Positions 27,901 to 30,900 of a stretch of 31,691 bases of DNA are shown here, piece after piece (positions within the stretch are counted from its first letter, which is position 1; each line of letters opens with the position of its first letter). The position numbers are program-made. The DNA comes from a virus (Duplodnaviria > Heunggongvirae > Uroviricota > Caudoviricetes), in the IMG/VR virus record IMGVR_UViG_2778261559_000026. The stretch is one strand, 5' to 3'.

Positions 27901-30900
27901 CATCGTGAAGCACTGATCGCGGCTGGCTTTGGTGTTGACGGTAAACTGCCTAACGGCATTCGTAAAGCAATCGACCGCGTTAAACCTGCTAAAGACGTTG
28001 CAGTAGACCACATCGTTACCTTTACCGTTAAGAACTCTTCTGAACTGTTCCACCTGGTGATTGCTGGTGATACTGCTATCGTTTCCGCTCCTAACATGGA
28101 TTTTCAGGATACCGCTGATTGCCAGATCACCTTCGGTCGTCGTAAAGAAGTTACCGGAAAAGCTAAACTGAACTTCACTAAATCCGGCAATCCTTATTTT
28201 TCTGTATTCTTTAACAGCCACGCTACAGAAAAAGAAGTAGTAGAAGTGGTTGCGTATGAAGGTGAATTGAAAGAACGCATTGAATCTTGTGAAGCATTCC
28301 TGGAACTGGAAGCACAGGTGAATGCTGTTTCTCCGCGCTTTACTTCACTGGAAGAAAAAGACCAGATCATCGAAGCACAGAAAGCTGAGATTGAAAAACT
28401 GAAAGCTGCACTGGAAGAAAAAGACCAGATTATCGAAGCACAGAAAGCTGAGATTGAAGAACTGAAAGCTAAAGAAGTTGCTCCGGTGGCAGTAGTTGAA
28501 AACGCGGCTGATGAGGCCGCAAATGATGAAGTAGAAGTGAAAATTGATGTGATGCGCGATCCGATGGCTGCATTAAACTTGCTTCGGTCCTTCAAGGGAA
28601 AATCCTATTTCTCTAGTGATGTAGAAGACGAGGAAGAACAGAAACGCAATACTGCAATGCTTCATGATGAAATGTACGGTACTAACTTTTCTTACTGCCA
28701 ATAAAAAAGGGACTCCGAAGAGTCCCTAGTAAGTTTAGGTTAGGTTTGCACAACAAAGATGAGGTTATAATGAACATAATGCTACATTATTCTTTAAAGC
28801 CAGAAAAATAACCGCCCCCTTCGGGGCGGGAGGATTAATACTCAATCTATACTTGTTATGTTTTTGTGTTGTATGATCACTGATTATGAAAACACTGTAC
28901 TGGAGTGTGTTTTTATGGCTTTTAATCGGGAATCCTCAAAGAAGATCCCCTGTTAATAACCATAAGGAGAAAAGGCAGATTACACTATTATTTAGTATCC
29001 TTTTTACAGCAACTAAAAAGAATAAACAAAAAGAAGCATACCCAGCCGTAAGGCGTACCGATTAGAAATTTGAAAAACACCACCAGCGATATAAAAATCA
29101 ATTTAATGCCAGCGACGATAGTCAAAAACAGCAGAGTAGCAAAGTAGACCAAAAGATCCATAGATAATCCTCTTTGAAAACGACCATCATCTATAGTTCA
29201 ATTCATCGATTTAATTAATGATACTTGAAAGCGTTACACACAGCAGAAATGCCAATATGTGCCAGTGAATATACGATAGTTAATCCTACAGTAAGATAAA
29301 TCAAAAATTCAACCATAGGTAAATCCTCAAATAAGAAAAAGGTTAGCGGGGGGTGATTCCCCCCGTAGACGTTGACCAGCTCAACATCTTTCATACATTT
29401 ATTTATAACGCGTTTTAAGACACATCAAATTCATCGTCTTCTTCTGGTTCTTGTTCCGGTTCATCCATTAATGGTAATTCTTCTTCCTGGTCTTCTCCCA
29501 AATCTGCATTTTCGAACAAGTCCCCTACTTCATTTAAACGACGCTCGATGATCTCCCTTAGCTTATTCTTCAATGTTTTCTGATCAGTGGCAGATTCGAG
29601 AATTTCTAAAGCGTCGATTGTGGCGATCTGCAAAATAGTCTGTTTCACCTTTCCGCAATATTCCGCTAGTTCCTGTTCTACATACCCGACCGGAATAAGC
29701 AGATTCATTGCCTCCTGGTTCTCTCGTTCGGCTGCATCCGCTAATGCTCTCTCACGGCGTAATTTTTCTACGTCGATTTGTTCCCTGATAGAAGTGTTTT
29801 TTAACGGGTTAATGATGTTCTTTAGGACCCAATCACATCCTTCTTTCGCCGGGACACGTCTTGTATTTGTGTTATAAGGTAGACCCCTTTCTATCCATCG
29901 CTTACCGCCACCATTCAATGAATAGCCGTATAAACGGGAAATTTCTGTAAGGGTTAATTCTTCTTTCATTGGTTATCCTCCATTAAATTTGCGTAATTTT
30001 ATTTATTGGTTTTACGCAAAATCTAAGCGCCTAAATCGCATTCTAACGAAGGGAAAGATCCAGTAATGGTAAGGGTTAGGAAGGGGGGTTAATAGTCGCG
30101 TAGCGACCGCGCCATGAGTGAAGTGATCACGTTTTAAAATCTCACACGCACATCAAATACCGGGGTGCCGAAAACTCCCTTTATTTCATCCGTGGAACAG
30201 TACCTTTTTAATTTGTCAAGCATTAATTTCTTAATTTAATTACTAAATCTCATCCCAATAATTGAAAAAATATCAAAAATCAATAAAGTAAGCATCTAAA
30301 AGTCAGTCCATACCAAAAGAGGTATAAAATGAAAAACATTATCGCTGCTATCGTGCTTTCTGCTACTGCTTTCGGTGCTGATGCTGCGTCCTTTGATTGC
30401 ACTAAGGCTATAACCAAATCAGAGAAGTTTATTTGTGCTAATGAGTCAATCTCCGCACTGGATTCTAAACTTCATGAAGTATATGTTAAGGCTGTTAAGA
30501 TTGATCCGTCTCTTAAACAAGAGCAACGCAACTGGAATAAAACTGTTCGTGATACAATGATCAATATCGGGCAGATTCAGCCACTGGAGGCTGTATACAA
30601 CGCTCAAATCCAAAACTTGATGAATGTATTATCTAAAGAAGAAACCGCGTCAGAGAGCGTTACAGATGATTCTGCAAAGGTTGAAGAAGAACAACCGAAA
30701 CAGGAAGAAGTAAAGAAACTGAATGTTACCGCGATTTACGCATGTACTGCAAAATTTACATGGAATGTTATCGATGGTGAGGAAACAGAAGCTGTAAAAG
30801 ATTACTTATACGGAAACAAAGATCATGATGATAAAGGCGGTAAACTTAAAATCAAACTGGTAGATGATGTTCCTGTGTCTTTTGTTTACACCGACAAATA

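Follow-up and report, generated by a model that had tools for sequence, protein, structure and literature searches.

Downstream of the terminase small subunit gene (terS) of an Escherichia coli prophage, recovered as IMG/VR virus record IMGVR_UViG_2778261559_000026 (31,691 nt in full, hereafter the window), lie two short open reading frames (ORFs) encoding hydrophobic peptides of 33 and 57 residues, which we call p33 and p57. The pair are new, unannotated small phage membrane proteins whose order can be permuted, or which can be replaced by one protein with three transmembrane (TM) segments, and they are flanked by conserved RNA structures. Judged from their sequence features and their relatives, both ORFs are genuine genes for small, predicted inner-membrane proteins, each with its own strong Shine-Dalgarno (SD) site.

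The p33 gene (29215-29316, minus strand; 33 aa, single-TM, MVEFLIYLTVGLTIVYSLAHIGISAVCNAFKYH), is preceded by the SD sequence GAGGA at 29324-29328, and the p57 gene (28988-29161, minus strand; 57 aa, two-helix, MDLLVYFATLLFLTIVAGIKLIFISLVVFFKFLIGTPYGWVCFFLFILFSCCKKDTK) by GAGGA at 29168-29172, the distance from GAGGA to ATG being 6-7 nt for both. Both products are extremely hydrophobic, with GRAVY values of 1.22 for p33 and 1.58 for p57. The hydropathy profile of p33 contains one hydrophobic span, and AlphaFold2 models p57 as two helices (residues 2-35 and 37-56) with a mean pLDDT of 88.5. The C-terminal tails are FKYH in p33 and KKDTK in p57, both basic and very short. The predicted topology is a single TM helix oriented N-out/C-in for p33 and a helical hairpin, N-in/C-in, for p57. 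In a screen for ORFs of 30-100 aa with an ATG, an SD site and a GRAVY of at least 1.1, p33 and p57 were the sole ORFs on either strand of the whole 31.7 kb window, compared with a mean of 0.17 such ORFs in 100 locally shuffled windows. A preliminary description of this DNA had proposed two small hydrophobic peptide genes downstream of terS, each with a ribosome binding site and the longer one forming two helices; the coordinates, SD sites, GRAVY values, AlphaFold2 helices and the PHROG match of the 184-residue terS product all bear this out.

Conservation of the two ORFs was examined in 23 IMG/VR contigs with terS at 86-100% identity, 15 of which contain both ORFs intact at 91-98% amino-acid identity and were aligned (A-type loci). 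Across these 15 loci p33 has 7 synonymous and 4 non-synonymous changes (approximately 24 and 78 sites, respectively), distributed 4/0/8 over codon positions 1/2/3, and p57 has 9 synonymous and 10 non-synonymous changes (approximately 39 and 135 sites), distributed 7/4/13. Combined, this amounts to 16 synonymous and 14 non-synonymous changes at approximately 63 and 213 sites, distributed 11/4/21. Indels are absent from all 276 coding columns of p33 and p57, as against 30 gap columns in the flanking non-coding sequence, and the amino acid replacements are mostly conservative hydrophobic swaps. Both genes evolve under purifying selection. The p57 leader (29162-29214, minus strand), which contains the SD sequence of p57, is the least variable segment of the locus, with 1 of 53 columns variable among the 15 E. 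coli loci. A longer, 59-aa reading of p33 starting at 29394 is broken by a 2-nt frameshifting indel in 6 of the 15 loci, and the 33-aa form was therefore taken as the gene. Both peptides were found by exact-sequence look-up in E. coli, with DEC10F, O121:H19, O145:H28 and O55:H7 strains among the carriers, and p57 has been named 'putative membrane protein' by some submitters.

The strongest of the coding arguments comes from Salmonella prophages (terS 54-68% identical), which contain a 59/60-aa gene and a 33-aa gene in the order opposite to that of E. coli. Each Salmonella gene keeps its own SD site and a recognisably homologous leader, the leader of the p59 gene matching that of p57. The Salmonella 33-aa protein (MFDFLIYLAGALTVSYLAAYIVIKFSCHFLSAK) is 46% identical to p33 (pairwise E = 1e-6); the 59/60-aa protein (MFEFIFLV...GW...KKKDTK, or ending ...GKGNKGKRNK) is a weak match to p57, approximately 30% identical over the aligned part with E = 0.013, and resembles it in length, architecture, leader and tail. 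Because length, start signals and linkage have been kept through both divergence and rearrangement, we take both ORFs to be genes. A candidate stem that would sequester the p57 start codon does not keep its register in Salmonella, and hence no claim is made for it.

The alternative, that p33 and p57 are chance ORFs in T-rich non-coding DNA and that the region is only a structured 3' untranslated region (3'UTR) or regulatory RNA of terS, draws on the fact that PGAP annotates neither ORF in RefSeq genomes, on the T-richness of the minus strand here, which favours hydrophobic codons, and on the conservation of the non-coding RNA in the flanks itself. It is nevertheless extremely unlikely given the excess of synonymous and third-position changes, the zero indels in the ORFs although their flanks contain many, the retention in Salmonella of ORF lengths, SD sites and starts despite the swap in order, and the observation of two adjacent ORFs where shuffled windows yield 0.17.

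The position occupied by p33 and p57 is a slot with alternative occupants. An exchangeable cassette (28997-29336, minus strand) is delimited by blastn breakpoints at reference positions 144 and 485, which are sharp, one falling directly past the upstream hairpin described below and the other immediately before the p57 stop codon. The alternative, B allele is an unrelated 94-aa protein (WP_000190126.1) modeled by AlphaFold2 as three helices; it accounts for 8 of the 23 IMG/VR loci, the other 15 being A-type, and for about half of 64 matching complete genomes. The swap between A and B occurs between prophages whose flanks are 92-97% identical. Diverged members of the B family (36-52% identity) hold the slot in three more loci (L037, L038, L116), and the B family has a basic tail, FKQTK. 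In a Proteus prophage (L034) and one other locus (L118) the slot contains a protein of 74-76 aa whose two TM segments enclose a strongly basic loop. The slot is thus filled in the 23 IMG/VR loci and in Salmonella, Proteus and other close relatives: every locus reaching past terS contains one of these three small-TM solutions, excepting a deletion remnant, a transposon insertion and a contig end. By the positive-inside rule the B allele would span the membrane three times, N-out/C-in, and p33 plus p57 would give the same topology cut after TM1. As to kinship by fusion or fission between the B allele and p33 plus p57, BLASTP returned no alignment and hhalign probabilities of only about 1%, which leaves just the resemblance in topology. 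The cassette has a GC content of 36%, versus approximately 41% in neighbouring sequence.

The gene preceding the slot, terS (29415-29969, minus strand; 184 aa), matches PHROG 57 (1.7e-10), and some NCBI records call its homologues 'terminase small subunit'. Distant homologues (30-38% identity) directly precede a gpA-type terminase large subunit gene (terL) in loci L119-L148, with no small ORFs between, and this adjacency confirms the identity of terS. The 80 nt past the terS stop (including positions 29347-29400) are conserved above the neighbouring coding sequences across E. coli and Salmonella, and hold a GTTATAAATA motif, an inverted repeat and a G6/C6 hairpin. The inverted repeat (GATGTTGA-N5-TCAACGTC; 29368-29388, minus strand) forms a hairpin in the folding model of the transcript, and its sequence is kept in E. 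coli and Salmonella and differs in Proteus L034. The second hairpin, (C)GGGGGG-AAUCA-CCCCCC(G) (29347-29365, minus strand), is likewise kept in E. coli and Salmonella, and shows a compensatory double change from G-C to A-U; of this segment the Proteus locus retains just GTTATAAATA and a variant of the hairpin. The terminator scan of the window did not call the 29347-29365 hairpin because the T-run begins 7 nt past the stem in E. coli; in the Salmonella relatives the T-run is absent. It is not a canonical terminator, and could be a conserved processing site, attenuator or protein-binding site.

A promoter scan found no sigma-70-like promoter between terS, or this hairpin, and the p33 ATG. Promoter-like sites in the region are fewer than expected (4 versus 7.1 in shuffles), two weak ones lying on the plus strand. 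A candidate sigma-70 promoter around GTTATAAATA was rejected, neither strand having an acceptable -10/-35 pair at conserved spacing. With neither a canonical terminator nor a promoter upstream, p33 and p57 are read as most likely the distal part of the terS transcript; their co-transcription with terS and their late expression are predicted. The stretch of RNA between the terS stop and the terminator (621 nt) folds much more strongly than its shuffles (z = -6.0). The preliminary description had instead set the two genes between minus-strand terminators as a self-contained mini-operon. Its downstream terminator stands, at 28812-28829 plus a T-run rather than at 28795-28822 (a shift of about 8 nt); its upstream terminator, the hairpin at 29347-29365, was not called by the scan and has no conserved U-tract, and a self-contained unit is at odds with the lack of an upstream terminator and of a promoter between the hairpin and the first ATG. 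Farther upstream, the terS 5' region (30060-30330) contains blocks kept from E. coli to Salmonella: CTTGACAAA approximately 260 nt upstream of terS, a palindrome GGTCGC-TAC-GCGACT, and TGCGTAA...ATAAATAAAATTACGCA. Such blocks may represent cos and/or a late promoter.

On the other side of the pair, RNAalifold and covariation delineate a conserved structured 3'UTR of about 160 nt (28830-28987, minus strand). It comprises the 14-bp hairpin A (approximately 28922-28956), a single-stranded UUUUCAUA(A/G)UC segment (UUUUCAUAGUC; approximately 28882-28892), and hairpin B (approximately 28844-28878), which covaries completely among E. coli, Salmonella and other relatives, all on the minus strand. In the RNAalifold model of hairpin A, 9 of 14 pairs have changes on both sides and none is broken. 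For hairpin A and the terminator together, 98.2% of cells are paired, versus 82.8% in shuffles and 42-64% when partners are slid, and there are 15 double-change pairs versus 5.2 expected; the observed values were not attained in any of 500 shuffles. From its invariant G.U pairs, the structured RNA is assigned to the terS-sense strand. Terminator 1 (CCGCCCC-GAAG-GGGGCGG plus a U-run; 28804-28829, minus strand, with the stem at 28812-28829 and the run reaching approximately 28804) was found by the terminator scan, shows compensatory changes in relatives, and is, by its sequence, the predicted end of the terS-p33-p57 unit. A second terminator called by the scan (AGGGACUC-UUCG-GAGUCCCU plus a U-run; 28700-28727, minus strand, stem 28708-28727) is conserved in relatives and lies directly against the stop codon of a convergent gene (318 aa). 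Searches of Rfam at gathering and at relaxed thresholds gave no match at the locus, the 3'UTR RNA included. This RNA is present whichever membrane-protein allele precedes it, and could be a 3'UTR-derived small RNA or a stability or processing element.

Searches with p33, p57, their Salmonella forms, the B allele and the Proteus form gave no match in Pfam, PHROGs, NCBIfam or PADLOC. When p57 and the B allele were used as queries, near-identical E. coli copies were all that turned up among 5.8 G proteins (word-seeded search) and 1.84 G representatives (full phmmer search). Among 50,697 phage records, neither DNA nor protein searches using the locus, p57 and terS returned anything useful, the closest cultured terL being only 43% identical. 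Two scans for terS across the species-representative genomes of GTDB detected no relative. As far as these profile and sequence searches reach, the p33-p57 pair belongs to no described holin, toxin or defence family.

Two functions, lysis timing and phage exclusion, account best for these observations, and we lean tentatively, at less than even probability, toward a holin-type lysis-timing module as the leading reading. In such a scheme p33 and p57 would accumulate in the inner membrane while the packaging genes are expressed and would set the timing of membrane permeabilisation, releasing the cytoplasmic M15 endolysin of this phage family, with p57 as the putative hole-former and p33 as a separate TM1-like partner or regulator. 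Both are small phage proteins with at least one TM domain. The complete occupancy of the slot by three unrelated small-TM solutions was counted in favour of a holin function; holins typically replace one another without homology at a fixed place, as part of lysis-cassette mosaicism. Support also comes from the basic C-termini of p57 (KKDTK), its Salmonella counterparts (KKKDTK, GKGNKGKRNK) and the B family (FKQTK), and from the location of the pair on the terS strand with no promoter or canonical terminator between. The 117-aa Peptidase_M15_3 endolysin (WP_000949338.1) found in the intact relative GN4741 lacks a hydrophobic N-terminus (no signal or SAR sequence) and therefore needs a holin; no recognised holin was found in GN4741, and the cassette proteins are the sole multi-TM small proteins in the prophage of the intact relative.

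Known holins offer a partial parallel. The likeness to class I and II holins is that of small phage inner-membrane proteins with a basic C-terminus: by predicted topology the B allele is like lambda S105 (3 TM, N-out/C-in) and p57 like phage 21 S68 (2 TM, N-in/C-in), unrelated sequences interchange at a fixed genomic place, and the phage family has a cytoplasmic endolysin needing a holin. The differences are tails of about 5 residues, compared with roughly 10-25 in holins, the lack of a dual-start motif, the split 1 TM + 2 TM layout, and the lack of holin-family membership and of endolysin adjacency. In the T7 late region the order is 17.5 (holin), 18 (terS), 18.5/18.7 (spanins) and 19 (terL), so that small membrane lysis genes lie among the terminase genes and far from the endolysin gene, as they would here. 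T7 is nevertheless an unrelated phage type with unrelated sequences, and in the present prophages the small genes lie 3' of terS and are followed by terminators and approximately 6 kb before terL.

Several observations weigh against a holin function. The pair does not lie in a lysis cassette beside an endolysin: in GN4741 the M15 gene is about 6.5 kb away across attP, or about 25 kb away in the prophage map, although the rule that holins adjoin endolysins has exceptions, for example T4 and T7. A conserved 92-aa protein, with a TM segment at its N-terminus and a coiled coil, and a TM protein of 56 aa, encoded in GN4741 between the tail-tip gene and the M15 endolysin (L026 9864-10331) and absent from the window, are 1.3 kb upstream of the M15 gene and thus nearer to it than p33 and p57; these are rival holin or lysis-accessory candidates, and a search for an embedded Rz1-like lipoprotein ORF in the 92-aa gene found none. 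The charged tails at the C-termini span only about 5 residues, no described holin is known to be as small as 33 aa, there is no holin-family match in Pfam, PHROGs or NCBIfam, and the Proteus and L118 alleles, with a long basic loop and no basic tail, are unlike a holin layout. The cassette is also part of an inserted accessory/regulatory block, as distant relatives have terS directly followed by terL, and this fits a moron equally. The preliminary description had suggested a possible lysis cassette, and a holin as one candidate. The former is not borne out: the window contains no endolysin, and in intact relatives M15 is at the opposite prophage end, two other small TM proteins being nearer to it. 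The holin proposal survives as one of the two best readings.

The other of these, somewhat unlikely taken alone, is that p33 and p57 are moron-type accessory membrane proteins made in the lysogen, with superinfection exclusion the most plausible role, or modulation of a host membrane protein. The cassette lies within an inserted block of approximately 6.2 kb that separates terS from terL here and is missing in distant relatives, extra DNA between otherwise conserved genes as is expected of a moron, and the block also contains a Rha/Ant-like regulator. Unrelated A and B alleles swapped at sharp breakpoints fit diversifying, conflict-driven selection; the cassette is lower in GC (36% versus approximately 41%), is followed by a strong terminator, and lies near the prophage end beside a variable LprI-like accessory gene (30329-31108). 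HK97 gp15, P22 SieA and T4 Imm block the entry of incoming phage DNA at the inner membrane. An exclusion precedent is HK97 gp15, a small, moron-encoded inner-membrane exclusion protein, and like p33 and p57 these proteins are small inner-membrane add-ons in or beside late operons, variable and with a terminator after them (PMC3594210). By contrast, p33 and p57 have no homology to HK97 gp15 (YebO family), no PADLOC match, and no detected promoter of their own, so that by sequence they do not appear to be an independent transcription unit. Morons are moreover usually sporadic, yet this slot is filled in every relative examined and every occupant is a small multi-TM protein, which suggests that they share one conserved biophysical task.

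A role as a type I toxin-antitoxin-like system, in which one or two membrane-depolarising toxins with RNA-restrained translation would stabilise the prophage or abort infection, is very improbable. Both peptides are below 60 aa and hydrophobic, and they resemble the Hok/Ldr/TisB/Fst class in size and hydrophobicity. The strong folding of the 621-nt RNA (z = -6.0), the unusually conserved p57 leader and the covarying structured RNA immediately downstream also suit such a system. The shared features with type I toxins (Hok/Gef, Ldr, TisB, Fst, ZorO) are 19-60-aa hydrophobic peptides on structured mRNAs, often in prophages; here, however, no antitoxin RNA was detected, the SD sites are accessible, and two peptides stand in tandem behind a protein gene and can be replaced by a 94-aa 3-TM protein. 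The sequence scans gave no antisense signal (no Rfam match, no plus-strand terminator in 28800-29400, and promoter-like sites at 4 versus 7.1), and invariant G.U pairs assign the structured RNA to the sense strand. The SD sites of both ORFs are exposed and of consensus sequence, no promoter separates the ORFs from terS, and neither Pfam nor NCBIfam gave a toxin-family match (Hok, Ldr, TisB, Ibs, ShoB, Fst and others). The toxin-like module raised in the preliminary description is weakened by the same absence of antisense signal and family match. A more elaborate proposal would treat the slot as a previously undescribed, fast-evolving module for lysis timing or for exclusion that exists in interchangeable forms (one 3-TM protein, or a 1-TM + 2-TM split with permutable order) and is controlled by the tandem upstream hairpins and the ~160-nt 3'UTR RNA, in other words a split RNA-regulated holin-like system; in this full form we consider it improbable.

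The window contains a prophage between a truncated hicB (31341-31691) and ydcR/lysN (1-822), with genes for a large serine recombinase, portal, protease-capsid fusion and tail proteins and a gpA-type terL (21256-23163); it is most likely a temperate siphophage-like element, and in E. coli, Salmonella and Proteus its relatives are inserted in ycdX. A deletion junction at approximately 3830 joins the recombinase (2537-3949, plus strand) at residue 427 of 559 to the tail-tip protein (3785-5584, minus strand) at residue 590 of 1258, removing about 6 kb that in GN4741 encodes the M15 endolysin and its neighbours. This deletion explains why tblastn with the M15 protein found nothing in the window, and it leaves the prophage defective; without an endolysin, the p33-p57 module would be unable to cause lysis alone here. 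The junction occurs in no complete RefSeq E. coli genome. The gap between terS and terL (23164-29414, approximately 6.2 kb) contains the small-TM cassette, the convergent gene, whose product is a coiled-coil protein, the Rha/Ant-like regulator and other ORFs; because terL directly follows terS in distant relatives, this block is an insertion specific to this enterobacterial prophage family.

Within the same gap, approximately 1.3 kb (26085-27390; GC 33-37%) contain no ORF longer than about 60 aa, are unannotated in GN4741 too and have no Rfam match; this segment could house regulatory sites, an origin or a non-coding RNA. Between the tail genes, a 257-aa ORF with NUMOD3 motifs (6050-6823, minus strand), homing-endonuclease-like, lies in an 840-bp segment that the GN4741 prophage, collinear elsewhere, lacks. 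The LprI-like gene (plus strand), located between terS and the attachment site, encodes a 259-aa secreted protein of the lysozyme-inhibitor family with a strong match to PHROG 14799; in other relatives it is swapped for a 101-aa hypothetical protein or absent, which marks a second variable accessory slot. In E. coli HeN100 and PE15 (L028, L029), ISApl1 flanking mcr-1 is inserted inside p57, at approximately window position 29021. The insertion is described as Tn6330 (PMC7700713), and its place agrees with the 'incomplete phage-like region between lysN and hicB' reported as the commonest chromosomal context of mcr-1 in a survey (PMC7700713).

Both genes have been missed by RefSeq annotation, yet they are conserved in a prophage family of E. 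coli (including STEC and ETEC lineages), Salmonella and Proteus, the same family that provides the commonest reported chromosomal landing site for mcr-1 (PMC7700713). If the pair is the holin of this family, it would be unusually small, split and distant from its endolysin, and would broaden what annotators should seek; if it is an exclusion module, it would be a new small-peptide defence. Either way, the slot after terS is a compact and testable example of how tiny membrane proteins replace one another without homology, accompanied by an undescribed structured RNA.

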